A stretch of 64,000 nucleotides of DNA from Acidimicrobiales bacterium (lineage in GTDB: Bacteria > Actinomycetota > Acidimicrobiia > Acidimicrobiales > SZUA-35), in the NCBI GenBank assembly GCA_965216655.1, contig CBDCGP010000002.1, positions 8,482 to 72,481 on the forward strand, given 5' to 3'. The notes under the pieces are model-generated. The model was not told where the DNA came from and ran no database searches. It was given only the letters and a program-made list of their open reading frames with translations. This document shows, in pieces, positions 2,569 through 51,463 of this stretch. Made by a program: the position numbers and the translations under genes. Position 1 is the first letter of the stretch, and each line of letters opens with the position of its first letter.

Positions 2569-5466
2569 TCAGCCGCCGGCCGCAGGTTCGGCGAAGGCCT
2601 CGAGTGGTGGGCAGGAACAGGCGATGTTGCGGTCGCCGTAGACGTTGTCGATGCGGTTGACCGGGCAGAAGTACTTGTCCATGGTCATGCCCGGCAGCGG
2701 GAACGCCGCCCGCTGACGCGTGTAGGACCGGTCCCACTCGTCGACGGTCAACTCCTCGACCGTGTGCGGAGCGTGGCGGAGGATGCTCGAGTCGGCCTCC
2801 ATCTTCCCGGCGGCGACATCGTCGATCTCGCCCCTGATGGCGATCATGGCGTCGCAGAAACGGTCGACCTCGGCCAGGCTCTCCGACTCGGTCGGTTCGA
2901 TCATCAGTGTGCCCGCCACCGGGAACGACATCGTGGGAGCGTGGAAGCCGTAGTCGGCGAGGCGTTTGGCCACGTCGTCATTGGTCACGCCGGTTTCCTG
3001 GGTTATCTTCCGCAGGTCGATGATGCACTCGTGGGCGACCAGCCCGTCGGTTCCGGTGTAGAGCACGGGATAGTGCTCGCCCAGTCGTTTGGCGATGTAG
3101 TTGGCGGCGAGCACCGCCGCCTCGGTGGCGTGACGAAGGCCCTCGGGACCCATCATCTTCATGTACATCCAGGAGATCGGCAGGATGCCGGCCGAACCCC
3201 ACGGGGCGGACGAGACGGCGCCCACCGTTCCGGTGTTCTCGATCTCGACCACGGGATGGCTCGGCACGTAGGGGGCGAGGTGTTCCCGCACGGCCACCGG
3301 TCCGACACCCGGACCGCCGCCTCCGTGGGGGATGCAGAACGTCTTGTGGAGGTTGAGGTGGCTGACGTCGGATCCGAAGTCGCCGGGTTTGGCCACCCCG
3401 AGGAGGGCGTTGAGGTTGGCGCCGTCGGTGTAGACCTGACCGCCGCCGTCGTGGACCATGCGGCACACGTCGCGAACGGTGTGCTCGTAGACACCGTGGG
3501 TCGACGGGTAGGTGATCATCAGGGCGGCCAGCGTTTCACCATGCTCGGAGATCTTGGCTTTGAGATCGTCGATGTCGACGTTGCCGTCGTCGTCGCAGGC
3601 CACGACGACCACCCGCATCCCGGCCAGAACGGCCGATGCGGCGTTCGTGCCGTGGGCGGAGGCGGGGATGAGACAGATGTCGCGCTGGGTGTCACCCCGG
3701 GAGGCGTGCCAGGCCCGGATGGCCAGCAACCCGGCGAACTCGCCCTGACTGCCGGCGTTTGGTTGGAGCGACACCCGGTCATAACCGGTGACCTCGGCAA
3801 GGGCGTCCTCCAGTTCGGTGATCAGCTGACGGTAGCCGGCGGTCTGATCGGCCGGGGCGTAGGGGTGGATGCCGGCGAACTCGGGCCAGGTGATCGGCTC
3901 CATCTCGGCGGCGGCGTTGAGCTTCATGGTGCAGCTGCCGAGCGGGATCATGGTGCGGTCGAGTGCCAGGTCGCGGTCACTGAGGCGCCGCAGCCAGCGC
4001 ATCATCTCGGTCTCGGTGCGGTGCATCACGAAGTTCGGATGCGTCATGAACTCACTCGAACGCTGCAGTGCCTCCGGTAGCCGGCCGGCGCCGGCCTCCG
4101 CGGCGATCGCCGTCGAGGCATCGCCTCCGACGGCGTCGGCGATCGCTTCGAGCAGGGTTTCGACCAGCGCCTGAGTCGACGTCTCGTCGAAGTTGGCGCA
4201 AACGGTGTCGTCGTCGACCCGCCGGAGGTTGATCCTGCAGGCTCGGGCCGCCTCCATGACGGCGTCGGTCCGATCGCCGGTGCCCGTCACCCGCACCGTG
4301 TCGAAGAACGACTCCGGGGTCGTGAGACCGAGGGCGTCGACGCCGGCGGCGAACCGGGAGGCGAGGCCGTGCACGTCGTTGGCGATCTCGGTCAGGCCCT
4401 CCGGTCCGTGCCAGGCGCCATAGGCCGCGGCCACGTTGGCCAGGAGCGCCTGGGCGGTGCAGATGTTCGACGTCGCCTTTTCCCGCCGGATGTGCTGTTC
4501 CCGGGTCTGTAGCGTCAGCCGATAGGCCGGTCGGCCGTCGGTGTCGATCGACACCCCGACCAGACGGCCGGGCATCGTGCGGACGTGTTTGTCGGCCGTG
4601 GCCATGTATCCGGCGTTCGGGCCGCCGAAGCCGAGTGGCACGCCGAACCGTTGGGCGGAGCCGACGACGATGTCGGCTCCCATCTCCCCCGGAGGGGTCA
4701 GCACACAACAGGCCAGCAGGTCGGCGGTGACCGCGACCAGGCCGCCGGCGTCGTGAACGGCGCTGATCAGAGGGGCGATGTCGGCCACCTCACCGGTCGA
4801 GCCGGGGTAGGCGAGGAGCGCGCCGAAGGCGTCGGACGCGTGGTCGACGACGGTTGCCGCCTCGCCGACGATCACCTCGATGCCGAGCGGTTCGGCTCTG
4901 GTGCGCACGACATCGATCGTCTGAGGATGGCAGCCGGCGTCGACGAACATCGTCGCCGAGTTCGATTTGCCGATGCGACGCAGCATCGTCATGGCCTCGG
5001 CCGCGGCGGTCGCCTCGTCGAGCAGCGACGCATTGGCGATCTCGCAGCCGACGATGTCGGCCACCATCGTCTGGAACGTCAACAGCATCTCGAGCCGGCC
5101 CTGGCTGATCTCCGGTTGATACGGCGTGTAGGACGTGTACCACGCCGGGTTCTCGATCATGTTGCGGCGGATGACCGGGGGAGTGATGCAGTCGTTCCAG
5201 CCGCAGCCGATGAGTGAGGTGAACACCTCGTTACGATCGGCGATCTCCCGTAGCGCGGCGAGGGCCTCGTGCTCGGTGAGCGGTCCGTCGACGCTCAGCG
5301 GCTCGTCGATCCGGATCGACTCCGGTACGGCGGCCTCGAGCAGCTCGGACGCACTGGCGTAGCCGAGTGCGGCCAGCATCGTGGCCTGCTCGTCGGCGTT
5401 GGTGCCGATGTGACGGGGGGCGAAAGAATGGGTGGTGAGGGCCTCGGAGTTGGACGTGTCGGACAT
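2569..5466 (-). CDS. gcvP: glycine dehydrogenase (aminomethyl-transferring), P protein
   Basis: About 965 aa with the PLP-lysine motif [19 protein letters not shown]. The start [10 protein letters not shown] lies 2 nt after the gcvT stop. The upstream 123 codons of the ORF are Arg-rich and overlap gcvT. Confidence 0.95.
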
Positions 5467-5468
5467 GA

Positions 5469-6638
5469 TCAACCTCGGTGGAATCGATGGGGGGCGAACG
5501 GAAGCTCGGCGACCGAGCAGGTGACGTCGTTGCCTCTGACGTCGGCGATCAGCGTGGTGCCGATCTCGGCCAGGGCCGGGCGAACGTAGCCCATGGCCAC
5601 CGGCCCGTCGACGGTGGGGCCGAAACCGCCGCTCGACACGAAGCCGACCGCTTCTCGGCCTCCGGACGCAGCGGACGGGTCGTCGACGAAGAGCTCGGTT
5701 CCGTCGCGGACCGGCCGCTTGCCGTCGGGTTTGATGCCGACGCGGACCCGGGTGGGACCGTCGGCCAGCTCGGCCTGCACCCGGGCGCCGCCCAGGAAAT
5801 CGCCCGCCTCCCGCCGGCGCTTCGGCATCGACCACACGAGGTCGGCCTCGACGGGTGAGATCTCGGCGGTCAGGTCGTTGCCATAGAGGCAGAGGCCGGC
5901 CTCGAGCCGCAGCGTGTCGCGGGCGCCGAGCCCCACCGGTCGGACGAGATCGTGGGCGAGCAGGGCTCGGGCCAGGCGGTCGGCGTCGGCGTTGGCCACC
6001 GCCAGCTCGAAGCCGTCCTCGCCGGTGTAGCCCGAGCGGGCGGCCATCACCTCAACGCCGGCCAGTGTCAGCGGACGGTTGTCGAGGAACACCATGTCGT
6101 CGATGGAACCGTCGCCGTCGTCGGCGGCGAGCAGCTCGGCCACGACGGCTGCCGTGTCGGGGCCCTGGATGGCGATGAGGGCCACGTCGGGCCGCTCCGT
6201 GATGTCGACGTCGGTGAGGTGCTCGGTGAGGAACGCAAGATCGGCGTCACGCCGCGAGGCGTTGGCGACCATCGAGAGGTGTGTGCCGTGATTGGCGACC
6301 ATGAAGTCGTCGACGACGCCGCCTTCGGCGTTGAGCAGCAGACCGTAGCGCTGCCGTCCCTCCTCGAGGGTGGTGATGCCGGCCGGCGTGACCCGTTCCA
6401 ACGATGCGGCCGGGTCGTCGCCCCGCATCTCGATGACCGCCATGTGCGACACGTCGAACAGACCGCAGTGCGTGCGACACCATGTGTGTTCCGCGATCAC
6501 GCCCTCGTACTGGATCGGCATCTCCCACCCGGCGAACGGCACGAGCCGTGCACCCAGCTCGGCGTGCAGCCCGTGGAGCGGGGTTGTCGACAGCTGGTCG
6601 CCCGGTTGTCCGTCGGTGGCGTTCGATTCTGTGGCCAT
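5469..6638 (-). CDS. gcvT: aminomethyltransferase, glycine cleavage T protein
   Basis: Family-typical [28 protein letters not shown] and 389 aa. The start [10 protein letters not shown] lies just downstream of the riboswitch. Confidence 0.95.
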
Positions 6639-6694
6639 GGCACCTCGATTCAATGGATCCCGGCCGCCGAAATCGGCCGCCGGTGATCTCCCGG

Positions 6695-6882
6695 TGCCCC
6701 CTCTGTCGCTGGTACCTGAGAGATTCGAGATCCGCAGTGGTCTCTTTCCCCTTCGGTGGCCGACTCGATCGACTCTCTCCAGAGTTATGTCACCGGCGCA
6801 ACGGTTCGTGGGGCCTGAGAGTTTCCGGGGCGGTTGCTCCTTCGGCGGATCGCTCACCTGGTGATCGATCGCTCTCCCGCAG
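6695..6882 (-). promoter_or_regulatory. tandem glycine riboswitch (two aptamers)
   Basis: The minus strand reads CGGGAGAG...CGCCGAAGGAGCAA...CTCTCAGGC, then CTCTGGAGAG...CACCGAAGGGGAAA...CTCTCAGGTACCAGCGACAG. These match the conserved cores of both glycine aptamers, directly 5' of gcvT. Confidence 0.85.
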
Positions 6883-12604: not shown

Positions 12605-13441
12605 CTACGGTCCGACCGAGATGCCGCTGCCATCGACGATCTGCCAGCCCAGCCGGCTGTGCCCGATGGATTGGGTGTAGAAGACGGCGATCCAGCGGGT
12701 CGACTCGCCGGCCCCGACGGTGAGCGCACCGCCGTAGAAGCCGTCCCCGGAAAACGTTCCCATCCACGAGTAGTCGGTCACTCTCGGCGGCAGTGTTGAT
12801 TGGGCCATGACCGCATTGCCCAAACCCTGTTCGAGGGTGACCATCAAAACCTCGTCGGGCTCGTCCCCCTCGTTGGTGATCAGCCGATCCGCGAACACGA
12901 CCGGTCCGGTCAGTGGTCGGATGCTCAGTCCCTCGACCGTGCCGGAACCGCAATACCAGTGGGTGCCCGGAGGATACCAACGCAGATAACCGGACAACGG
13001 CCGTGCCGTGGCCGTCTTGCGGACGAAGTCCTCGGACTCGATGAGCGTGAGCGCCATCTCCCCCCGTGGGTAGCCGGTGTTGAGAATACGGGTCCAGTGG
13101 TCGAGGATCTGCTGCGACGGCGGCGGATTGCGGGTGTTCCGGTACATCAGCTCGACGAATTCTGAGGAGGTGAGCGATCCGTGCTGGCGGTTGAACTCGG
13201 CCGACCGGGCGAGGTCGGTCGTTATGGCCGCTAGATTCGCCTGTCCTGATCCATATTGATTCGTCCAATGGAACGCCTCATTGAGATCCGGTTCACGGAG
13301 AAACAGGGCGATGAAGATGCGCCGAATCGAGTCGGTCATCTCCGGGCACGCGCTGTCGGGATGGCTGTCGGCGTCGATGCCCGCAGTCGGACCGGCCAGC
13401 AGAATCGATCCCAGCATGGTGACCGCCACCAGCAGGCGCAT
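12605..13441 (-). CDS. secreted DUF4214-like protein
   Basis: Signal peptide MRLLVAVTMLGSILLAG. The segment IRRIFIALFLREPDLNEAFHWTNQY...LARSAEF resembles DUF4214. An alternative start at 13540 is possible. Confidence 0.65.
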   Translation of the reverse strand: MRLLVAVTMLGSILLAGPTAGIDADSHPDSACPEMTDSIRRIFIALFLREPDLNEAFHWTNQYGSGQANLAAITTDLARSAEFNRQHGSLTSSEFVELMYRNTRNPPPSQQILDHWTRILNTGYPRGEMALTLIESEDFVRKTATARPLSGYLRWYPPGTHWYCGSGTVEGLSIRPLTGPVVFADRLITNEGDEPDEVLMVTLEQGLGNAVMAQSTLPPRVTDYSWMGTFSGDGFYGGALTVGAGESTRWIAVFYTQSIGHSRLGWQIVDGSGISVGP

Positions 13442-13859
13442 CACGACGCCGGCGCCGCCTCGGCGCGGTGAAGTGGCGTCATCATCAGGATGATCCCGAT
13501 ATCGCTGCCTGAGTGGTTCTTCGGTGTACATAGGATTCAACTGGTGCCAATTGACGGTAGGCGGTCACGTTCAAGCTCTGAATTCCAATGTCGCCTTGTG
13601 CGGAAGATGCTATCAGCATGTCGAATTGAAGTTCGAGCCCACACATCGGTCGGTGTCGGGAAACCTACCACCGGGGCGGTTCGGCCCCTCCGGAAGCAAG
13701 TTGCCGTCGGTGAGAATGGGTGCTCGATTCTTGGCAGGTCGAGCGCCACCTGTTTGATCTTATTTCTCGGTATTTGTAGCTGCTTGTTTATGCACTATAG
13801 ATTGATGGAGTGCTTGACAATATGCTGTATTATTTTGATTGGTGAGCGTAGATACTCGC

Positions 13860-15545
13860 ATGACATTCGAGCGCCGGAAGCCCTCGGTCGATCTCCGGGC
13901 CTTTCTGGATCCTCTGAAGCCGGGGTCCTATTTCGACTGCGGTGAGGCCCGCCTGGGCGGGATCGATGTTGCACTCGAGGAGGAGGCGTTGCGGCGGGGC
14001 CGCCCCGTTGGCGAGGATTCCTTCCAGCTGGTCGCCACCGACGGCGGTTTGATCTACTGCCGCGCGTCGATCATGTTCGCCATCGCCGCTCGCTGGAAGG
14101 ACCTGACCATCGGTCGGCCCGAGGATGGCGCTGCGGCCGACGAGTCCGTTCTTCCCGTGACGTGGCCCACCCACGGCGATCTCCGGTTCACGGTCAGCCG
14201 GCGTCTCGGCAGCAACATCTTTCGCCGATGGCTGCAACTGCAGGCTCAGGCCACCCGGCGAAGCCAGGTCGAGCAGGACGTTCGCTTCGAGCGGACCCGC
14301 GCCTTCACCTCCGGTTCGGACAACGGCGACGTGAACGGACACGACGGTCGAGCCAACGGATGGAATGGGGAGGCCAACGGCGTCCCTGTCAACGGTCGGA
14401 ATGGGGACGACGCCCGGCCCGGGACCGACGATGCGAATGGTGAGGCCGACCACGCAGTTGCCGCCAGCAACGGCGCGACCCACGATGATGTCCTCGACCT
14501 TCGCCCGGCGACCGAGGCGGAACCGACGGTGTCGTTCGATCCGCTGGCGACCATCGACGAAGCGGTCGTGGACGACTGGGTCGATGACCGCGTTCCGGCC
14601 ACCTCACCGTCGTCCTCCACTTCTCCCTCTGCCGCGGCTCCGCCTTCGACTACCACTCCGGTCCGGATTCCGCCCGAACGGTCCGACAACGGCGACGATC
14701 CGACCGCTGATCCGTTCAACGGACACCCGATCCGCGGCGACGCAGCGGTCGATCCAGTGGCCGACCCGGCCGCCACCCATTTCATGCGCCGGACCGTCGA
14801 CGGCACCGAGATCTTTCCCGATCAACGGGCCGGGAGGGACGGCGGGGATTTCGGCCGTTCGGTCGTCGACGCCCCGTCATTGCCGTCGGGCGACGGCGGT
14901 GGCTCTCGCAACGGACCGCTGGGCGTCCCGGTACCCGAGATAAGCGGCGCCCGACTCCAGCGAGCCGCGGGCAGCCCCGATTCGGTGGCCGTTCCCAGAC
15001 TCGACATCAGGTCCACGCTCCTGGCCGGACGACGTGAGTCGGAGTGGATCGAGGCCCTCCGCCGTCGCCAGGTTTTCATCCTCGGGCTCGTCACCATCCT
15101 CGCCCTGGCGGTCATCGCCCTGATCGGCTTCTTCTCCGGTGGCGACAACGGTGACATCGAAGCGAGCGCCGGCGCCGTCGTCGAAGCCGCCGACGGCGAT
15201 ACAACGCCGCAAACCCTGTCGAGCGACGCCGGCCCGGCGGTCGACGACACCAGCGTCACCCCGACCACGACGCAGGCCGCGGAAGCCGATCAGATGGCCG
15301 CACAATCAACCGTGCCGACGCTTCGGGTCAGTAGCACAGCGGTGCAGATCTGCCACTCGAACTACGGAGGCTGCGTTCCGGTCGCCGCCGATGTCGACTG
15401 TGAGGGCGACGGCGACGGCCCGGCCTTCCAGGTCGCCCCGGTTGCCGTATTCGGTGACGACGTGTACGAACTCGACACCGACAACGATCGGGAGGCCTGC
15501 GAACCGGATCAGCCGCGGGCATCGGTCGACGCCGACGACGGCTGA
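13860..15545 (+). CDS. membrane protein with a C-terminal Excalibur-type Ca-binding motif
   Basis: Single TM helix FILGLVTILALAVIALIGFF. C-terminal CHSNYGGCVP...LDTDNDREACE matches the DxDxDGxxCE-type Excalibur signature. I preferred the ATG at 13860 over the GTG at 13839. Confidence 0.6.
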   Translation: MTFERRKPSVDLRAFLDPLKPGSYFDCGEARLGGIDVALEEEALRRGRPVGEDSFQLVATDGGLIYCRASIMFAIAARWKDLTIGRPEDGAAADESVLPVTWPTHGDLRFTVSRRLGSNIFRRWLQLQAQATRRSQVEQDVRFERTRAFTSGSDNGDVNGHDGRANGWNGEANGVPVNGRNGDDARPGTDDANGEADHAVAASNGATHDDVLDLRPATEAEPTVSFDPLATIDEAVVDDWVDDRVPATSPSSSTSPSAAAPPSTTTPVRIPPERSDNGDDPTADPFNGHPIRGDAAVDPVADPAATHFMRRTVDGTEIFPDQRAGRDGGDFGRSVVDAPSLPSGDGGGSRNGPLGVPVPEISGARLQRAAGSPDSVAVPRLDIRSTLLAGRRESEWIEALRRRQVFILGLVTILALAVIALIGFFSGGDNGDIEASAGAVVEAADGDTTPQTLSSDAGPAVDDTSVTPTTTQAAEADQMAAQSTVPTLRVSSTAVQICHSNYGGCVPVAADVDCEGDGDGPAFQVAPVAVFGDDVYELDTDNDREACEPDQPRASVDADDG

Positions 15546-44289: not shown

Positions 44290-46365
44290 TCAGGTCCACA
44301 GGGCGTTGAGCATGGCGTCGACCTCGTCGGCCACGCCGACGGTGGTCAGGTCGATCGCCGCCTGATGATCGTGGGCCGGTCCGTGATCGATGGTGTCGAA
44401 CAGGTCGGTGAGCGGTTGGAGGAATCGGCTCAACTGGGCGAAATGGTGACGGTCGTTCGCGTTGAAGCGGTGCACGTGGTAGCGGAGCGGGAACGAGATG
44501 GTGAGTTCCCGACGGGCCCGGGTCACCGCCACGTAGAGCAGGCGAAGCTCCTCGGCCAGACCATGAGGTTCGCCGAGTGCCATCTCGGACGGGATGTTGC
44601 CGTCGGCCGCATGCAGGAGGTGGACGGCCTGCCACTCGCAGCCCTTGGCCGAGTGGATCGTGCTGAGTGTGAGCCAGTCGTCGTCGAGATGCGGCCGGCC
44701 GGCCAGGTCGCCGGTTCGCTCCGGCGGGTCGAGCGTCAGTTCGGTGAGCATCCGGCTCCGGTCGCAGTACGCTCCCGCGGTGGCCGCCAGCTGGTCGATG
44801 TCGGCCAGTCGGGCGCCGCTGTTCTCGTAACGCCGCGGAAAGACGACGGCACAGAACGACTTGAGCCGGTCGATCTGTTCGGCCGGCGACAGGTCGCCAC
44901 CGGCACAGTCGGCCAGGGCGGACCGCAGGTCGTCGGCCTGATCAGCGGCGGACACCGGTACCCGGCCGAGTCCGTCGACGAACCGGAGCAGGGCGTTCGA
45001 CCCCGGCTTCAGTACCCGGAGGTCGTCGATGAGGCGGCGCACCGTGGCCGGACCGACGCCGTCGAGTGTGAGAAGAACCCGGCGCCACGCCAACTGGTCG
45101 TCGGGATTCTCGAGAATGCGGATGAGCGCCAGGACGTCCTTCACATGGGCCGACTCCAGATACTTCAAGCCCCCGTACTTCACAAAGGGGATATCACGCC
45201 GGACCAACTCGAGCTCCAGCGCGTCGCCGTGATGGCCCGCCCGGAACAGCACGGCCTGCTCGCGCAGATCGATGCCGCGCTCCCGGGCATCGAGAATACG
45301 GTCGGCGACCATCTTCGACTGTTCCTGCTCGTCGTAGCTGGTGAGAAGCACGGGCCGGACGCCACCGTCGATGCTTGACCACAGCCTCTTGTCGAACGTC
45401 GACGCCTCCACGTCGACCTGCTGGCCCAACAACTCGTTGGCCACCGCCAGAATCGGCTCGGTCGACCGGTAGTTCCGTTCCAGTGTGATCACCGACGCGC
45501 CGGCGAAGTCCGAAGGGAACGACCACATGTTCTCGACGGTGGCGGCCCGGAAACCGTAGATCGCCTGCGCGTCGTCTCCCACGGCGCAGACCTGGGTGGA
45601 GTGACCGCACATGCCGGCCACGATGTCGGCCTGGATGGAGTTGGTGTCCTGATACTCGTCGATGAGGATGTGGTCGAACAGGCAGCGAAGCGCCTCGCCG
45701 ATCGGGCTGGCGGTGAGACCTCGCCAGTACAGGAGAAGGTCGTCGTAGTCGCAGATGTTGCTCTGCCGCTTCTTGGCGGTGTAGGCGGAGAACACGGTGC
45801 GCAGATCGTCCGCATGGTCGGCACACCACGGGTAATCGGCGGCCAGGACGTCGGCCATCGGGGCCTGGCTGTTGACCATGCGGGAGTAGATGGCGGCGAT
45901 CGTCTCGGGCCGGGGGAAACGCCGGGCCTGCTCACCGAATCCCTCCTCGGCCCGCACGAGACCGAACAGATCGATGGTGTCGGCGTGATCGAGCACCGTG
46001 AATCCGTCGGCGAACCCGGCGGCCGATCCGTAGAGCCGGAGCAACCGATTGGCCACGGAGTGGAACGTGCCGCTCCACAGCCGGGACGACAGCGCCCCCT
46101 GGTCGTCGCACGTTGCGCTCACCCGGCCGACCATCTCGGCCGCCGCCCGGCGGGTGAACGTCAGCAGCAGGATGCGTGCCGGATCGACGCCGCCTGCGAC
46201 GAGATCGGCCACTCGGGCGACGAGTGTGCGGGTCTTGCCCGTGCCCGCACCGGCGACGATCAGCAGGTGGGAACCGCGGTGGCGGACGGCGAGTTCCTGT
46301 TCGGGATTGAGGTCCTCCGAACTGAGGTGTTCGGTGTTGGGGCGCGACGGCAGCTGATTTTCCAT
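44290..46365 (-). CDS. UvrD/PcrA-type superfamily 1 DNA helicase
   Basis: Walker A VAGAGTGKTRTL, motif II ILIDEYQDTN, TIHSAKGCEW, YVAVTRARREL. The start at MENQLPS (46365) or at 46398 is equally possible. Confidence 0.85.
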   Translation of the reverse strand: MENQLPSRPNTEHLSSEDLNPEQELAVRHRGSHLLIVAGAGTGKTRTLVARVADLVAGGVDPARILLLTFTRRAAAEMVGRVSATCDDQGALSSRLWSGTFHSVANRLLRLYGSAAGFADGFTVLDHADTIDLFGLVRAEEGFGEQARRFPRPETIAAIYSRMVNSQAPMADVLAADYPWCADHADDLRTVFSAYTAKKRQSNICDYDDLLLYWRGLTASPIGEALRCLFDHILIDEYQDTNSIQADIVAGMCGHSTQVCAVGDDAQAIYGFRAATVENMWSFPSDFAGASVITLERNYRSTEPILAVANELLGQQVDVEASTFDKRLWSSIDGGVRPVLLTSYDEQEQSKMVADRILDARERGIDLREQAVLFRAGHHGDALELELVRRDIPFVKYGGLKYLESAHVKDVLALIRILENPDDQLAWRRVLLTLDGVGPATVRRLIDDLRVLKPGSNALLRFVDGLGRVPVSAADQADDLRSALADCAGGDLSPAEQIDRLKSFCAVVFPRRYENSGARLADIDQLAATAGAYCDRSRMLTELTLDPPERTGDLAGRPHLDDDWLTLSTIHSAKGCEWQAVHLLHAADGNIPSEMALGEPHGLAEELRLLYVAVTRARRELTISFPLRYHVHRFNANDRHHFAQLSRFLQPLTDLFDTIDHGPAHDHQAAIDLTTVGVADEVDAMLNALWT

Positions 46366-46458
46366 GACGAACACGAGACTAGCGACGGCCTGTGACACCG
46401 ATCAGCTGCTCCCGCCGGCCGAGTTCTCGGGGATCGTGGACAATCGGTTCCGGCGATT

Positions 46459-46486
46459 TTGTGAACGGGAGCGTGATGACTAGAAT
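46459..46486 (+). promoter_or_regulatory. candidate promoter of the 46592-47936 cassette
   Basis: TTGTGA (46459-46464), N16, then TAGAAT (46481-46486). AGGAG lies 6 nt before the ATG at 46592. Confidence 0.4.
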
Positions 46487-46591
46487 CAATCGCTGCACCG
46501 TCGACCTTCAGCAGGCAGCGTCGTCGAATCGGCTCGAGAGCCCGAGAATCGGTCGTCCCCGGTGCAATCCGCCGCAACCCAGGAGTAAGAC

Positions 46592-47332
46592 ATGGTGACC
46601 GCATTGGAGCGTCACGCGACCAGTCGCGTGGCCACCCTATTCGAGCCTTTCGTGACCAGTGCCCGTCAGGACTTCCACACGAGCGAGGTGATCGAGCTGA
46701 TCACCTCGCCCGACTGTGATCCCGAACTGCTGGACCGCTACCTCATCCAGTACTGCGCCCAGGGCGTCCGGATGACGGAGCCTGTCGAGGGATGGATTCG
46801 TCGCGCCGGTGAGCGAATCGTGGACCAGGGTCTGACCGAGCTGGGCCAGGCGCTCCAGCGCCACGCCGTCCACGAACGTGATCACCACCTGCTGATGATC
46901 GACGACACCCGGCGTCTGGTCGACATGTGGAACGAGTCAGGTCGTGAACCGTTGGACGCCGAAGAGCTACTTGCGACTCCACCTTCACCGGGCACGGTCG
47001 ACTACATCGAACTCCACGGGTCGGTGATCGCCGGCGACGAACCGTACGGCCAGATCGGAATCGAATACGAGATAGAGATGTTGTCGGTCACCGCCGGCAC
47101 CAGGCTGCTCGCCAACGTGGCCAAGGTGTGCGGGGCCGATCGAATCGAGGCACTCAGTTTCCTCACCGATCACGTCGAACTCGATGTCGGTCACACCGAA
47201 TTCAATCGCCGCCAACTCGAGGCCATTCTGGAGGATCATCCGGAGTTCGCCCGACCGATCGCCGATGCGGGTGTGGCGGCCCTCGGTGCGTACCGTCGAT
47301 TCATGACGGACTGTCTGTCGGCCATTCGTTGA
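46592..47332 (+). CDS. heme-oxygenase-like fold protein, putative diiron oxidase (HDO-like)
   Basis: All-helical 246-aa protein with the ligand-like pattern E-x7-H (ELGQALQRH), a mid-protein IEYEIE, and H-x3-D-x2-H (HVELDVGH). Confidence 0.45.
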   Translation: MVTALERHATSRVATLFEPFVTSARQDFHTSEVIELITSPDCDPELLDRYLIQYCAQGVRMTEPVEGWIRRAGERIVDQGLTELGQALQRHAVHERDHHLLMIDDTRRLVDMWNESGREPLDAEELLATPPSPGTVDYIELHGSVIAGDEPYGQIGIEYEIEMLSVTAGTRLLANVAKVCGADRIEALSFLTDHVELDVGHTEFNRRQLEAILEDHPEFARPIADAGVAALGAYRRFMTDCLSAIR

Positions 47333-47336
47333 TCGG

Positions 47337-47936
47337 ATGGAAGACTTTCGGGGAGCCATTCGTCCGGCGGGATCGGACGACGAGTTGAATGCGATCTACG
47401 AGCTGCGAGCCAAGGTTTTTTTTGGTGAGGACATCCTGAAGCTGGGCCACTCGAGCCGGCTGACCGATGAACTGGATGAACATCCCAATGTCGTGAACCT
47501 GATCGTGGTTGCGAACGGATCAGGTCGCGAAGCAGAGGTGGTCGGCGGCGTGAGACTCGCGTTTCCCGCCCCCGATCTGATTCCGGCCCGCACACCATTC
47601 TTTGACTTCCAGGACCACATTCCTGGTCGTTCCACGAAAACGGCGTGCGGTTCCATGCTTTGCATTCGATCCGACTACCGACGCTCCCGGCTTGCGTCTA
47701 TGCTCGTTCGTTCGGGCATGTTTCTGAGTCGTGAGCGATCCATGAGCTACTTGTGCGCTGCCGTGCGGCCGCGGACGGTCCCATTCTTCAATCGACATGG
47801 ATGGGAGCAGGTTGCGCCACAGTTCGATCACCCGGTGGAGCTGGTCCCGGTGACGCCGATGATCATCGACCTCACCAAAGGGCCGTCATCGGAGGAATTG
47901 GCCGAAACGATAGGTGATCTACTGGCCGTCTCCTAG
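47337..47936 (+). CDS. GNAT-fold N-acyltransferase of the OlsB / N-acyl amino acid synthase / LuxI-like type
   Basis: Starts 4 nt after the upstream stop. IYELRAKVFFGE...TDELDEHPNVVNLIVV resembles the Y-x-LR-x-x-VF and D-E-x-D...(L/H)-L-x-V motifs of this subfamily. Confidence 0.5.
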   Translation: MEDFRGAIRPAGSDDELNAIYELRAKVFFGEDILKLGHSSRLTDELDEHPNVVNLIVVANGSGREAEVVGGVRLAFPAPDLIPARTPFFDFQDHIPGRSTKTACGSMLCIRSDYRRSRLASMLVRSGMFLSRERSMSYLCAAVRPRTVPFFNRHGWEQVAPQFDHPVELVPVTPMIIDLTKGPSSEELAETIGDLLAVS

Positions 47937-48022
47937 TCGCTCGGTGACATGAACTGATAGCGTCGAGCCCGGTCGCTCGGCGACCGATCGCATTTGTACT
48001 TGAAAACAACTCACCCCGGCCG

Positions 48023-49897
48023 ATGGGCTCCTTGTACCACCTACATGGAGACGTTGGCATGGTCGACAGTTCTAGCACAGAATCCGCAGATTCAGGCAGT
48101 GGTCTTGACATCCTCATCACCGAGGTCGCGACTGACCTGATGGGTGTCCCACTCGATGCAGCGGCGGCAGCAATGGATCGCGTGCTGGATCGGCTTGTGG
48201 ACTTTTTCGAGGTCGACGATACGTTCATTCGCCGCCACCGCCCCGATCGCGTTTCCGAGCTGGTCACGATCCGACCGCCACGCGATCTCATCGCCTCCCC
48301 GGAGTTGATAGCGGAAATTCCGCTCGACAGCGACCCGATCTTTCAAGCACTCGAGCACCTCACCGAGCCGTTCGTGCTGTATCCGGAGGGCTCCGATGCG
48401 ATTCAGGAGCTCGTCAAGACCAGTATCGGTGTCGATCGGTGCTCGTTTGCGTCGGTGCCGTTGATGCGGGATGAACGCACGGTCGGCATTCTCGCTCTGG
48501 TCCGGTTCACCGATCAGCGTTGGCAGGATGACGAGCTACGCACGCTCTTCGCCATTGCCACCATGATCGCCCAGTTCTGGTCGCGTCTGGACGCCGAGGA
48601 ACAACTCGCATATCGCGCCCATTACGACGAAATGACCGGTCTTCCCAATCGTCTCAAGCTCATGGACGAGGTCGCCGCCAGTTCCGATGCCGATCAGCTG
48701 TCGCTGATGAACCTCAACATCGACAACATGAAGGTGATCAACGATGGTCTGGACTTCGAACTCGGTGATCGCTTCATCGTCGGCTTGGCAAACCGCCTCA
48801 CAGAGGTCCTTCGCGACGATGCGGTCGTCGCCCGAACAAGCGGCGACCAGTTCTCGGTATTGGTGAAGAACACCCCGCCCTCCGGTGTCGAGAAGGTCGC
48901 CGCCCGATTGCTGGTCGAACTCGGTCGATCCCTCGACCTCGGCGACTTCAAGATCTCACGCTCCGTTTCCATCGGTATCGCCCACAAGCCTCCCGGCGAC
49001 ATCGAGCACGACCTGTTTGCCGAGGCCGACGCGGCCTTACATCTGGCCAAGAAACAAGGCAAGAACCGGTTCCGGGTCTTCGACAATGACATGCGCATGA
49101 GCGTTGTCAAGAAGTTCGAGCAGGAACTGGAACTGCGGCGGGCAATCGAAGCCGGCGAATTCACGCTGCACTATCAACCGGCGCTCGACCTCAAGTCGGG
49201 AACCGTTCAGGCCGTCGAGGCCCTGCTGCGCTGGAACCACCCGTCGGGCAAACTGCAAACGGCCGGTGCCTTCATCGAGACCGCCGAGGAGAGCGGCCTC
49301 GTCGTGGAGATCGGTGACTTCGTTCTCGAAGCCGCCATCGCCCAGATCGGTGAATGGCAGGATGACTATCCGGATCTGGAGATGTGGATCAACGTGTCAC
49401 CGGCCCAGCTGATGAGCCGGGATCTGGTCACCCAGGTCGAAAAGCTCCTGACCAAATATCAGGTTGAGCCGTCACGCATCTGCCTCGAGGTGACCGAGCA
49501 CGTTGTGCTCGACGACATCGAAGCGGCAACCGGCGCCCTCTATCGCCTGCGGGCCATGGGCGTTCAACTGGCACTCGACGACTTCGGCACCGGCTACTCG
49601 TCGATGAAACAATTGAAGAATCTCCCTGTCGACTGCCTGAAGATCGACATGAGCTTCGTCGCCGGACTGGGGAAGTCCGACCATGACGCCGCCATCGTCG
49701 ACGCCGCCATCACGCTGGCCGGTGCATTCGGGTTGAGCACCGTGGCCGAGGGCGTCGAGACCGACGAACAGGTCTGCGAGCTGCTCAGCCGGGGTTGTAG
49801 CCAGGCCCAGGGATTCCTGCTGGCAAGGCCCCAGAGCCCGGAGGACGTCGAGATGATCCTTCAGGCGGAGCCCACGCCTCACAGCATTCGCATCTGA
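48023..49897 (+). CDS. GAF-like sensor / degenerate GGDEF / EAL c-di-GMP phosphodiesterase
   Basis: YDEMTGLPNR, with SGDQF in place of GG(D/E)EF. The EAL set is complete: EALLRW, EVTE, DDFGTGYSS, KIDMSF, EGVET. Confidence 0.85.
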   Translation: MGSLYHLHGDVGMVDSSSTESADSGSGLDILITEVATDLMGVPLDAAAAAMDRVLDRLVDFFEVDDTFIRRHRPDRVSELVTIRPPRDLIASPELIAEIPLDSDPIFQALEHLTEPFVLYPEGSDAIQELVKTSIGVDRCSFASVPLMRDERTVGILALVRFTDQRWQDDELRTLFAIATMIAQFWSRLDAEEQLAYRAHYDEMTGLPNRLKLMDEVAASSDADQLSLMNLNIDNMKVINDGLDFELGDRFIVGLANRLTEVLRDDAVVARTSGDQFSVLVKNTPPSGVEKVAARLLVELGRSLDLGDFKISRSVSIGIAHKPPGDIEHDLFAEADAALHLAKKQGKNRFRVFDNDMRMSVVKKFEQELELRRAIEAGEFTLHYQPALDLKSGTVQAVEALLRWNHPSGKLQTAGAFIETAEESGLVVEIGDFVLEAAIAQIGEWQDDYPDLEMWINVSPAQLMSRDLVTQVEKLLTKYQVEPSRICLEVTEHVVLDDIEAATGALYRLRAMGVQLALDDFGTGYSSMKQLKNLPVDCLKIDMSFVAGLGKSDHDAAIVDAAITLAGAFGLSTVAEGVETDEQVCELLSRGCSQAQGFLLARPQSPEDVEMILQAEPTPHSIRI

Positions 49898-49909: not shown

Positions 49910-50851
49910 TCAGTCGAGCAGGCCGGTGATGATGAACTCGGCTCGCCGCTGAAGTGCGGCCGTCTGCTCGTCGTCGCCTTCCGACGCCAACTCCTCGCCC
50001 CGGGGGTCGGCGACCAGCTGGTCCGGGTTGACCCCCTGCGAAACCCAGTAGTCGATCACGGCCTGAGCGCGCCTGCGGGCAACGTCGAGGTTGACCTCCT
50101 CCGAGCCGACGGCGTCGGTGCGGGTCACGACCGTGAGGGTGGCCTGGGGATTCTGGCTCAACAGCAGGGTGCCGAGGTCGAGTAGAGGGATGAACGGCGG
50201 ATCGATCTCGACGGAATTGAAGCGGAACAACACGACGTCCTCCACGAACAACGGTGTGCTCTCGCCCGGATCGATGACGACCGTCGGATCGATCTCGTAT
50301 TCGGCGACGACGTTGTCGGGGCCGACGACCGACTTGGCCTTCTCCACGATCAGATCGGCGACCTCCTGGCTCGGAACCTTGCCACCGAGGTACAGAACAC
50401 CGCCCCGAAACACAGCGGTTCGGCCCGAGTCGTCGCCGTCGGTGATCGTGGACGAAGCACTCTCGGCCCCGTCGGAATCATCACCGGTGCCGGCGCTGTC
50501 GGTATCGACGTCCAGTGCGGCGGCCTCCTCGCCGTCGTCGCCGTCGGTGGCATCGGAGCCGTCGGCCGTCGTCTCGACGCCGTCCTCGGCCGCCGCCTCG
50601 GAGTCGAGATCCCCGGCCTGCGCCCCGTCGTCGGATGCCGTCGGTGCGCCCGGGTCGGTGGCCGCGGTCTCATCGGCCTGGTTCTGGGCGATCAGATAGC
50701 CGATCAGGCCCATGCCGGCGAGGGCCAGAAGACCGAACAGGGCGAACATGGCCGTGCGGCTTCGAGACGGACGCGACGACGGTTCGGCTGCGAGGGCGGC
50801 GCGTGGCTGTTGATCGGCACTCCAGCTGGGAAGATCGTCGTGCTCGCTCAT
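49910..50851 (-). CDS. OmpA/MotB-type peptidoglycan-binding protein with an N-terminal TM anchor and acidic linker
   Basis: C-terminal TRTDAVGSEEVNLDVARRRAQAVIDYWVSQGV...RRAEFII. Start at MSEHDD behind GGAGG. Confidence 0.75.
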   Translation of the reverse strand: MSEHDDLPSWSADQQPRAALAAEPSSRPSRSRTAMFALFGLLALAGMGLIGYLIAQNQADETAATDPGAPTASDDGAQAGDLDSEAAAEDGVETTADGSDATDGDDGEEAAALDVDTDSAGTGDDSDGAESASSTITDGDDSGRTAVFRGGVLYLGGKVPSQEVADLIVEKAKSVVGPDNVVAEYEIDPTVVIDPGESTPLFVEDVVLFRFNSVEIDPPFIPLLDLGTLLLSQNPQATLTVVTRTDAVGSEEVNLDVARRRAQAVIDYWVSQGVNPDQLVADPRGEELASEGDDEQTAALQRRAEFIITGLLD

Positions 50852-51059
50852 TGAAATTGCCTCCACCCGGTCGGCGCCGAACGCCGATCCGGCCGTACGT
50901 GAATCGGACCGATCGAGTGGCCGGCACCGGGTCGGACGCCAAGTACCGACTGCGGATCCCGCCACGTCGGGTCAGCATATCTTGCCGCTGCTGGAGGGAG
51001 AAGCAACAAAGGTGCACAGCGGGACGCGAAGGGCCTGGGCCGAATGGCCCGAACGCCGC

Positions 51060-51320
51060 TCAGTCCTCGGAGACCACCCTGCTCGCCTTCAGCGTGGCGA
51101 TGATGTCTTCAAGAAGGAAATGGAACTTTCGGGACCCCGGGAGGCGGCTCGCCGGCAGACGGCCGTCGCCGGCCATGTTCAGAACCGTGCGCGGATTGAG
51201 ATCCAGCAACTCGGCCACCTGAGCGGTGTTCAGGATGGGTGGGTAGTTGCGGCGCACGCTTTCGAATCCGTCGGCGTTGGCGTCATCCGGACCAGAGCCG
51301 GTGGGAGCGTCCTTGCTCAT
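51060..51320 (-). CDS. excisionase-family (HTH_17) DNA-binding protein
   Basis: ILNTAQVAELLDLNPRTVLNMAGDGRLPASRLPGSRKFHFLLEDI. Confidence 0.6.
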   Translation of the reverse strand: MSKDAPTGSGPDDANADGFESVRRNYPPILNTAQVAELLDLNPRTVLNMAGDGRLPASRLPGSRKFHFLLEDIIATLKASRVVSED

Positions 51321-51463
51321 GTGCTCCAAGGTAACAGGAAACACAAGAACATGCGCCGGTCGAATGCAGACTTCGGTAGATTCCGGTAGACGATGCTCAA
51401 CATCGTGGCTGTCGACGATGCCCAACGCCGAGCGTGAGGCGGATTCAGGGCTATCGTTGGCCC

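Follow-up and report, generated by a model that had tools for sequence, protein, structure and literature searches.

A widely conserved gene pair for a putative heme-oxygenase-like dimetal enzyme and a FeeM-type acyltransferase, possibly coupled to cyclic di-GMP in Acidimicrobiia

What might be made by a putative metal-dependent oxidase whose gene adjoins that of an N-acyltransferase, and why do the two genes sit in front of a gene for a probable cyclic di-GMP (c-di-GMP) phosphodiesterase? The question is raised by a stretch of 64,000 nt from an Acidimicrobiales bacterium (assembly GCA_965216655.1, contig CBDCGP010000002.1, positions 8,482 to 72,481), here called the window; all coordinates count from its first letter as position 1. 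Two open reading frames (ORFs) on the forward strand, ORF1 and ORF2, are separated by only 4 nt (TCGG), as a preliminary description of the locus had reported, and are followed by ORF3 (Table 1). We propose that ORF1 and ORF2 form a two-enzyme cassette that acts on one small molecule and that, in a three-gene module of Acidimicrobiia, is coupled to c-di-GMP. We put the probability of this proposal at roughly 0.5. The pair itself is widely conserved and still uncharacterized, and it probably makes a small molecule.

Both a predicted structure and the pattern of conserved residues support the assignment of ORF1 as a heme-oxygenase-like putative dimetal oxidase/oxygenase (HDO), the class suggested in the preliminary description. 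The AlphaFold2 (AF2) model, built from an alignment of 32 sequences (A1), is all-helical, with a predicted local distance difference test score (pLDDT) of 95.8 and a predicted template modeling score (pTM) of 0.91. In a Foldseek comparison with the PDB, the top match is Sden_3740 (3dde; template modeling score [TM] 0.72/0.76, E 1e-5). The dimetal enzyme CtCADD is second (TM 0.66-0.78), ahead of TenA, HmuO, UndA, AetD and HrmI. The matches to 3dde, CtCADD, UndA, AetD and HrmI all have a probability of 1.00, with TM 0.5-0.78. Structures of TenA, thiaminase II and HmuO match at the level of the fold (TM 0.57-0.71), below 3dde and CADD. 3dde and CtCADD outrank TenA, and the model does not point to the non-metal TenA/PqqC-like fold that had been set against this class.

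In searches with the sequence of ORF1, Pfam PF14518 (Haem_oxygenas_2) scores 28.9 bits, exactly its gathering cutoff of 28.9, and many ORF1 homologues have a precomputed match to the same family. There were no matches in NCBIfam or in direct sequence searches of the PDB, in which the E-values against PDB chains were not significant, and Pfam TENA_THI-4 and Heme_oxygenase gave none at E <= 1. Identity to characterized HDO members is 12-18%. A word-indexed search returned 374 matches, nearly all of them unnamed or called "hypothetical protein", and an exhaustive search of 1.84 billion representatives yielded 371 ORF1-family clusters at 50% identity, 132 of them at E <= 1e-30. Judged by these sequence searches, the ORF1 family is a discrete, compact but well-conserved HDO subfamily that is spread across phyla.

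The HDO superfamily is defined by a ligand set that comprises three histidines and three carboxylates on three core helices (2026 review, PMC13108848). The candidate ligands in ORF1 are E95, H98, E160/E162, H194, D198 and H201, and they are invariant across alignment A1. Among 121 family representatives, which reach down to ~31% identity, E95 is conserved in 107, H98 in 111, E160 in 119, E162 in 113, H194 in 109, D198 in 112 and H201 in 107; each of the six positions of the three-histidine/three-carboxylate set is thus kept in 88-93%, and E160 in 98%. Other near-invariant residues, besides E160, are H91, D105 and H142. In profile alignments, E162, H194, D198 and H201 fall on the YSYE and H-x3-D-x2-H stretch of CADD, whose residues there we take to be E142, H174, D178 and H181, and H91-x3-E95-x2-H98 coincides with the same motif in 3dde. 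The layout E-x2-H / E / H-x3-D-x2-H is presumably also that of UndA (E101/H104, E159, H194/D198/H201). In the model, H194, D198 and H201 (i, i+4, i+7) on helix 189-215 and E158 and E162 (i, i+4) on helix 151-180 have spacings consistent with one helical face each. The motif strings listed in the preliminary description are all present (ELGQALQRH, IEYEIE and HVELDVGH in ORF1; YELRAKVF and DELD in ORF2), and the three-histidine/three-carboxylate layout that it named agrees with the conservation of 107-119 of 121. However, its first ligand, E83 of ELGQALQRH, is conserved in only 50 of 121, and the assignment E-x7-H is therefore wrong in its first element; the conserved motif of the first helix is H91-x3-E95-x2-H98.

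Features of the ORF2 sequence identify it as a FeeM-type, LuxI-like N-acyltransferase of the GNAT class and not as a canonical N-acyl homoserine lactone (AHL) synthase. Pfam PF21926 (FeeM) matches with 52.6 bits against a cutoff of 27 (E 5.7e-14), residues 19-177 covering profile positions 1-157 of 158, and orthologues are annotated likewise. A profile of 26 partner GNATs has its best PDB matches in the autoinducer synthases 5w8a/5w8c (2e-12), followed by 6wn0, 6wns, 3p2f and LasI (1ro5). We take 5w8a to be BjaI, 6wn0 RpaI and 3p2f TofI. Of these, 6wn0 is a 4-coumaroyl-homoserine lactone synthase and 3p2f an AHL synthase. The Pfam and PDB matches agree with the earlier view of ORF2 as a GNAT resembling N-acyl amino acid synthases and acyl-homoserine lactone synthases. 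The conserved set of LuxI-type enzymes, in LasI numbering, is R24, F28, W34, D45, D48, R70, E101, S103 and R104. Aligned to 5w8a/5w8c, ORF2 keeps the LuxI-like positions R24, F28, D44-x2-D47, R73 and S106 but has L34, C104 and M107 in place of W34, E101 and R104. Pfam Autoind_synth (PF00765) does not match ORF2 even at E <= 1. Together with the three missing equivalents, this argues against a canonical AHL synthase. A weak Autoind_synth match was found on one distant partner (that of P0077, in L087), and no LuxR-type receptor is adjacent in any neighborhood examined. Membership of ORF2 in the MSMEG_0567 GNAT family was rejected (31 bits against a cutoff of 68 in NCBIfam).

Are the two genes together by accident? 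Among 84 related loci from a scan of representative genomes, in which GNATs were found with an iterated profile, 35 have a GNAT gene at most 400 nt from the HDO gene or fused to it, so the pair is conserved as neighbors well beyond the window, a point on which the preliminary description had made its proposal depend. These loci are essentially all of those from Acidimicrobiia, Egibacteraceae, Acidobacteriota, Bryobacteraceae, Sphaerisporangium, cyanobacteria and proteobacteria, and further annotated neighborhoods agree. The pairing is not due to chance and holds for almost all lineages outside Myxococcota. The stop and start codons of the two genes often overlap, and in 8 Acidobacteria loci the two proteins are fused in the order HDO-GNAT. 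Fusions exist in both orders, HDO-GNAT (L063, L077, P0204, P0215) and FeeM-HDO (P0234, P0237, P0227), and this is strong evidence that both enzymes act in one pathway, which we consider very likely. Literature searches on the pairing of an HDO with an N-acyl amino acid synthase or GNAT, or on PF14518, found nothing relevant, and neither the combination nor the fusions nor the c-di-GMP coupling is described in the 2026 HDO review (PMC13108848). Taken singly, each protein adds a member to a superfamily already known, and the earlier remark that the pair is not recognized as a described pathway agrees with the literature searched.

Some neighborhoods hold additional genes. L023 (Acidobacteriota) has two FeeM-like ORFs (1311-1958 and 3182-3574) that lie 2.4-4.7 kb upstream of its HDO gene and are not adjacent to it. 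ORFs of ~220-305 aa stand directly downstream of the HDO gene in L028 and L040 (6739-7455), L088 (6804-7466) and L022 (6564-7484), which come from Nannocystis, a metagenome contig and a Nitrospirota metagenome-assembled genome; these ORFs have no Pfam match and could be very divergent GNATs or a different partner. In L001, from an Acidimicrobiales genome of 5.17 Mb, two genes on the same strand (2633-5807) are inserted between uvrD and the cassette. They encode an enoyl-CoA hydratase/isomerase-family protein (558 aa) and a PaaA/PaaC-like, ferritin-type protein (472 aa), and may provide accessory acyl-CoA chemistry. The natural fusion of L077 (5737-7467) is carried by Silvibacterium bohemicum S15.

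ORF3 is probably a GAF-gated c-di-GMP phosphodiesterase. The downstream phosphodiesterase of the preliminary description is borne out by Pfam and NCBIfam, which together give GAF, GGDEF and EAL domains. All EAL catalytic motifs are intact, and the degenerate SGDQF/GGDQF motif is conserved in the comparison of five orthologues. The likely true start of ORF3 is the ATG at 48059, which has GGAG ahead of it. A GAF-GGDEF-EAL gene stands behind the pair in the window and in the syntenic loci L001, L002 and L005. The same order, HDO-FeeM-GAF-GGDEF-EAL, is found in L003, L004 and L008 despite unrelated flanks, in which a polyprenyl synthase gene lies upstream and a lytic transglycosylase (SLT) gene downstream instead of uvrD and the OmpA-family gene. 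The unit in this clade of Acidimicrobiia comprises three genes and not the two described before, and the third gene is kept across differing flanks.

Links to c-di-GMP also occur in Myxococcota. In at least 36 loci of this phylum, a gene for a protein of ~700 aa precedes the HDO gene, and its stop codon overlaps the HDO start codon. In L054 (Myxococcus xanthus), the two genes lie at 3830-5980 (~716 aa, PilZN-PilZ plus tandem GNAT) and 5980-6729 (HDO), with a TAATG overlap; in M. xanthus DK1622 they are MXAN_3535 (PilZ-GNAT) and MXAN_3534 (HDO), both "hypothetical" at NCBI. Pfam detects a PilZ domain in the upstream protein, and that of L054 has canonical RxxxR and DxSxxG motifs. In an AF2 model (pLDDT 83), the N-terminus resembles the c-di-GMP receptors YcgR, PP4397 and MrkH, and the C-terminus matches the tandem GNATs clavulanate ORF14, VipF and MAB_4324. 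The tandem-GNAT nature of the C-terminus is visible only by structure prediction. A sequence relationship between this C-terminus and ORF2-type GNATs was rejected, as there was no match in Pfam or in a PDB sequence search and the hhalign probability was 0.2.

MXAN_3535 is a remote homologue of the M. xanthus protein PixB (19% identity over 285 aa, E 9e-6). We rejected the possibility that it is PixB itself: the spacing of its RxxxR is unlike R121/R331, 0 of 9 pixB primer sequences were found in the loci checked, and the C-terminus differs. Nor does the pixB operon contain an HDO gene; the genes downstream of pixB encode an S-adenosylmethionine-dependent methyltransferase and a hybrid histidine kinase, and a comparison with the HDO profile in hhalign gave a probability of 0.1. 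Kuzmich et al. deleted 24 PilZ genes of M. xanthus, and MXAN_3535 is not in their list; the tags MXAN_3534 and MXAN_3535 were not found in searchable literature.

PilZ and HDO can also be joined in a single chain. P0253 (844 aa) and P0258 (811 aa) are PilZ-X-HDO fusions, and they share with P0208 (824 aa) a layout of PilZ (~110-220), an unassigned and presumably GNAT-like stretch of ~350 aa, and an HDO domain at the C-terminus, although the PilZ domain itself, found in P0253 and P0258, was undetected in P0208. Lastly, two proteobacterial metagenome-assembled genomes encode a membrane GGDEF-EAL protein, in L081 (3789-5759, minus strand) as the divergent neighbor of the HDO gene and in L062 (1344-3287, minus strand) 2.4 kb away. 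The two proteins are 45% identical, and their N-terminal ~210 aa have no Pfam match, are hydrophobic and look membrane-embedded. This N-terminal domain is unrelated to the GAF domain of ORF3, and a shared sensor was rejected. An association with c-di-GMP therefore recurs with different modules, and it has independent origins as GAF-GGDEF-EAL, as membrane GGDEF-EAL and as PilZ fusions. These independent forms suggest a direct tie of the second messenger to the biosynthesis or sensing of a small molecule, which is testable in cultured organisms.

How might the three proteins work together? We postulate that ORF2 would acylate the amino group of an amino acid or amine, with an acyl-CoA or acyl-ACP thioester as the donor. 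ORF1, an O2-activating dimetal (Fe/Fe or Fe/Mn) enzyme in this scheme, could oxidatively tailor either the N-acyl product or its amine precursor; oxidative decarboxylation, desaturation and N-oxygenation are examples of such steps. The product of the cassette, or a related lipid-like ligand, might be sensed by the GAF domain of ORF3 and so be coupled to the level of c-di-GMP, much as in RpfF/RpfR. In Myxococcota, PilZ could mediate control of the acyltransferase by c-di-GMP, as proposed for PixB. That the product is an oxidized N-acyl amino acid or amine is a tentative view, to which we give slightly less than an even chance. Sensing by ORF3 seems to us the likeliest form of coupling in the window, but its chance is well below even. 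It is unlikely, although worth stating, that the product represents a new class of oxidized N-acyl, lipoamino-acid-like signal wired into c-di-GMP, in which the GAF-GGDEF-EAL protein would be the receptor in Acidimicrobiia, c-di-GMP would control synthesis through MXAN_3535 in Myxococcota, and the HDO would act on an N-acylated substrate.

Several observations weigh against the proposed coupling and against parts of the proposed chemistry. Most Acidimicrobiia loci that bear the pair are without a GGDEF-EAL gene (L009-L014, L018, L020, L026, L043), so the trio is specific to a clade of about five genomes. Most pair-bearing loci overall are without any c-di-GMP gene, and the 1-2 nearby GGDEF/EAL genes in ~30 non-Myxococcota loci are close to what chance would give. 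The spacer between ORF2 and ORF3, 86-122 nt, leaves co-transcription in doubt, and ORF1 and ORF2 are without a c-di-GMP-binding domain. The PilZ proteins of Myxococcota imply that c-di-GMP acts on the enzyme, which is the opposite of a product acting on the GAF domain in the window. In ORF2, Cys104 takes the place of the Glu in the E-W-S-R motif of BjaI; with the loss of the W34 and R104 equivalents, this makes the catalytic mechanism and the acceptor uncertain. ORF1 of the window also departs from its family at two positions: residue 17 (nt 46640-46642) is Phe where 109 of 121 have Tyr, and residue 143 (nt 47018-47020), beside the near-invariant H142 and a Glu in 105 of 121, is Gly. The closest relatives, P0005 and P0006, also have F17, and G143 is found in none of the other 31 sequences of A1. 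With these departures, the activity of this copy of ORF1 could be altered or reduced. Finally, we infer the metal, the substrates and the product, and likewise the order of the reactions and the sensing by GAF.

Could the cassette be a plain specialized-metabolite or tailoring pair that takes no part in signaling, with the phosphodiesterase merely co-located or co-regulated? Lipoamino acids of the membrane, siderophore-like hydroxamates and antibiotics are examples of what it might then make. Characterized HDOs serve natural-product biosynthesis (PMC13108848), and FeeM-type enzymes make N-acyl amino acids (Pfam family description). The many loci with the pair and no c-di-GMP gene fit this explanation, and the enoyl-CoA hydratase and PaaA/PaaC-like genes upstream in L001 hint at acyl-CoA metabolism. 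However, the pair keeps its GGDEF-EAL gene even between wholly different flanks, PilZ and the HDO are fused or translationally coupled across Myxococcota, and no other biosynthetic genes, such as those for nonribosomal peptide synthetases, polyketide synthases or transporters, are consistently near in the neighborhoods examined. We regard this explanation as rather unlikely. A departure of another kind would be that the GNAT modifies a protein or other macromolecule, as discussed for PixB, with the HDO either a CADD-like self-sacrificing or radical partner or an enzyme acting on the modified residue. CtCADD, the nearest solved dimetal relative, is self-sacrificing, its sacrificial residues being Lys K152 and Tyr Y27 (PMC13108848), and position 17 of the HDO family is a near-invariant Tyr. 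In addition, the tandem GNAT of Myxococcota resembles the protein acylators VipF and N-myristoyltransferase and belongs to the remote PixB homologue, and GNAT substrates cannot be deduced from sequence, as the PixB paper points out (PMC8316039). Set against this are the place of ORF2 in the FeeM/LuxI class of small-molecule acyltransferases and, in a weak alignment, the position of K152, where ORF1 has Leu and the family consensus a hydrophobic residue in place of a conserved Lys. Phe17 rules out a Tyr-sacrificing mechanism in the copy of the window. For the same two reasons, Leu at the K152 position in that weak alignment and Phe17, we rejected ORF1 as a CADD-type self-sacrificing p-aminobenzoate synthase. 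Modification of a macromolecule is, on balance, quite improbable.

Two further alternatives concern the identity of a single enzyme. If ORF2 were a true AHL synthase, the locus would be a canonical LuxI-type locus in an actinobacterium, and ORF1 would modify the AHL. Among solved structures, LuxI-type synthases are closest to the ORF2 family, the partner of P0077 has its weak Autoind_synth match, and equivalents of R24, F28, D45/D48 and R70 are present in ORF2. We nevertheless give this possibility very little credence, as PF00765 does not match ORF2, L34, C104 and M107 replace W34, E101 and R104, and no LuxR-type receptor gene adjoins the pair. Similarly, ORF1 might be no metalloenzyme but a TenA/PqqC-like or true heme-oxygenase-type protein of the same fold. 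The fold-level matches to TenA, thiaminase II and HmuO, the Pfam score exactly at its cutoff and the nonsignificant E-values against PDB chains would allow for this. The conservation of the three-histidine/three-carboxylate positions and their alignment with the CADD and 3dde motifs, the rank of 3dde and the dimetal CADD as top structural matches, and the lack of a TENA_THI-4 or heme-oxygenase match in Pfam at E <= 1 make it highly improbable. The two-enzyme cassette acting on one small molecule, with its coupling to c-di-GMP in the three-gene module, remains the reading that we prefer.

The DNA around the genes contains several possible signals. ORF1 is preceded by a Shine-Dalgarno sequence, AGGAG, at 46581-46585. 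The promoter-like site of the preliminary description is present, inside the 193-nt intergenic region that separates ORF1 from the divergent uvrD-like gene. It is weak because it matches only 9 of 12 consensus positions; such sites occur 2 times in 3.9 kb against 0.7 expected. The 5' leader that follows has two blocks, CGCTGCACCGTCGACC (46491-46506) and CGGTGCAATCCGCCGCA (46560-46576), and their conservation in four sequences (the window, L001, L002 and L005) contrasts with the divergence of the ~55 nt that separate them. GCACCG and CGGUGC of the two blocks can pair, forming a stem that closes just 5' of the Shine-Dalgarno sequence. The window has a single copy of the second block, against 0 expected by chance, and elsewhere the block is confined to the closest loci, being absent from more distant ones. 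The predicted fold of the leader is no more stable than that of shuffled sequences (z = +1.77), and no known RNA family, including c-di-GMP riboswitches, matched the region 46200-48200 (leader and spacers) at E <= 1 in Rfam. The blocks may serve as a pair of operators or as an RNA element of the leader, and support for an RNA structure is weak. The stem of the hairpin reported behind the pair exists, but it has little of the character of a terminator: it has no T-run, a terminator scan called none after ORF2, and the region around it folds like shuffled sequence (z = -0.14).

Table 1. Coordinates of the genes and candidate signals at the locus, in window numbering
Feature	Coordinates	Strand	Description	Basis
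Promoter-like site	46459..46486	+	TTGTGA-N16-TAGAAT	9/12 consensus match; weak
5' leader	46491..46576	+	two conserved blocks	kept in window, L001, L002, L005
ORF1	46592..47332	+	246 aa; heme-oxygenase-like putative dimetal oxidase/oxygenase (HDO)	Pfam, AF2 model, Foldseek, motif conservation
ORF2	47337..47936	+	199 aa; FeeM-family LuxI-like GNAT N-acyltransferase (by sequence)	Pfam PF21926, family profile vs PDB
Short hairpin	47971..47985	+	GGTCGC-TCG-GCGACC, 6-bp stem, in ORF2-ORF3 spacer	unconvincing as terminator
ORF3	48023..49897	+	GAF ~48170-48574, degenerate GGDEF (SGDQF) ~48617-49069, intact EAL ~49130-49831	Pfam, NCBIfam, five orthologues

Two genes on the minus strand lie 3' of ORF3 and are kept in the syntenic loci L001 and L002. 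One encodes a protein of the OmpA family that contains a long acidic stretch of low complexity (49910-50965), and the other a small HTH_17 (excisionase-like) protein (51060-51425).

Was the cassette acquired from elsewhere? The preliminary description had noted a lower G+C content and taken it to suggest foreign origin. The content is indeed lower, 62.5% in ORF1 and 58.7% in ORF2 against a window mean of 66.1 +/- 2.7%, but ORF3 (60.6%) belongs to the same tract, which thus spans three genes and not two. In windows of 600 nt, ORF2 is at the 1st and ORF3 at the 4th percentile. The only other tract of the window as G+C-poor as the cassette (~57%) is 13200-13900, mostly over a divergent intergenic region of ~300 nt between genes at 12605-13540 (minus strand) and 13839-15545 (plus strand). 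In orthologous loci, the module lies 0-5 points below its flanks in G+C content, which follows that of the host (53% in L003, ~65% in L001 and L002). A recent foreign acquisition is therefore unsupported.

With an acyltransferase as neighbor or fused domain in nearly all its members, this HDO subfamily points to diiron chemistry that would be new, on acylated substrates, and to an uncharacterized metabolite. It is present both in little-studied phyla (Acidimicrobiia, Acidobacteriota) and in the genetically tractable M. xanthus, as MXAN_3534/MXAN_3535. If the unlikely reading of the product as a new class of signal were true, the three-gene module would be an autoinducer-to-c-di-GMP circuit in a Gram positive phylum, analogous but not homologous to RpfF/RpfR.

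Known systems resemble parts of the module. Members of the HDO superfamily have the same seven-helix fold and the same motif of three histidines and three carboxylates on three helices as ORF1, and a GNAT partner is described for none of the characterized ones in the 2026 review (PMC13108848). Reactions are known for only about a dozen HDOs, with free fatty acids or amino acids as the substrates in all cases, and the reaction types include decarboxylative olefin formation, desaturation and N-oxygenation (PMC13108848). An N-acylated substrate, if true, would be new for these enzymes. The functionally uncharacterized structural-genomics protein Sden_3740 (3dde), which has a heme-oxygenase-like fold, shares H-x3-E-x2-H, E and H-x3-D-x2-H with ORF1 at 16-17% identity. 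ORF2 shares the full-length PF21926 domain and the LuxI-like GNAT class with the N-acyl amino acid synthases FeeM and NasY but has Cys in place of their conserved catalytic Glu. The FeeM cluster contains other tailoring enzymes, and we know of no HDO partner described for it. With LuxI-type AHL synthases, ORF2 has in common the N-terminal block R24, F28, D-x2-D and R73, whereas it differs from them in the lack of an Autoind_synth match, of the W34/E101/R104 equivalents and of an adjacent LuxR gene.

Two systems offer precedents for the link to c-di-GMP. In RpfF/RpfR of Burkholderia and Cronobacter, which uses the Burkholderia diffusible signal factor (BDSF), the synthase gene lies next to a gene for a sensor-GGDEF-EAL protein that turns perception of a lipid-like autoinducer into hydrolysis of c-di-GMP (PMC6361424, PMC4698668). 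The window, L001-L005 and L008 likewise have a synthase gene adjoining a sensor-GGDEF-EAL gene, an analogy of architecture only. The synthase of RpfF/RpfR is a crotonase and the sensor of RpfR is a PAS domain, whereas here the enzymes are a GNAT and an HDO and the sensor is GAF. The systems are homologous only in the GGDEF-EAL domains. PixB of M. xanthus (PilZ-PilZ-GNAT; PMC8316039) and, in Caulobacter, HfsK (a GNAT that binds c-di-GMP; PMC5362036) are precedents for GNATs that are regulated by c-di-GMP. MXAN_3535 is like PixB in its architecture of PilZ and tandem GNAT. ORF2 of the window has no PilZ domain, and the PilZ-GNAT feature is found only in the Myxococcota partner of the HDO.

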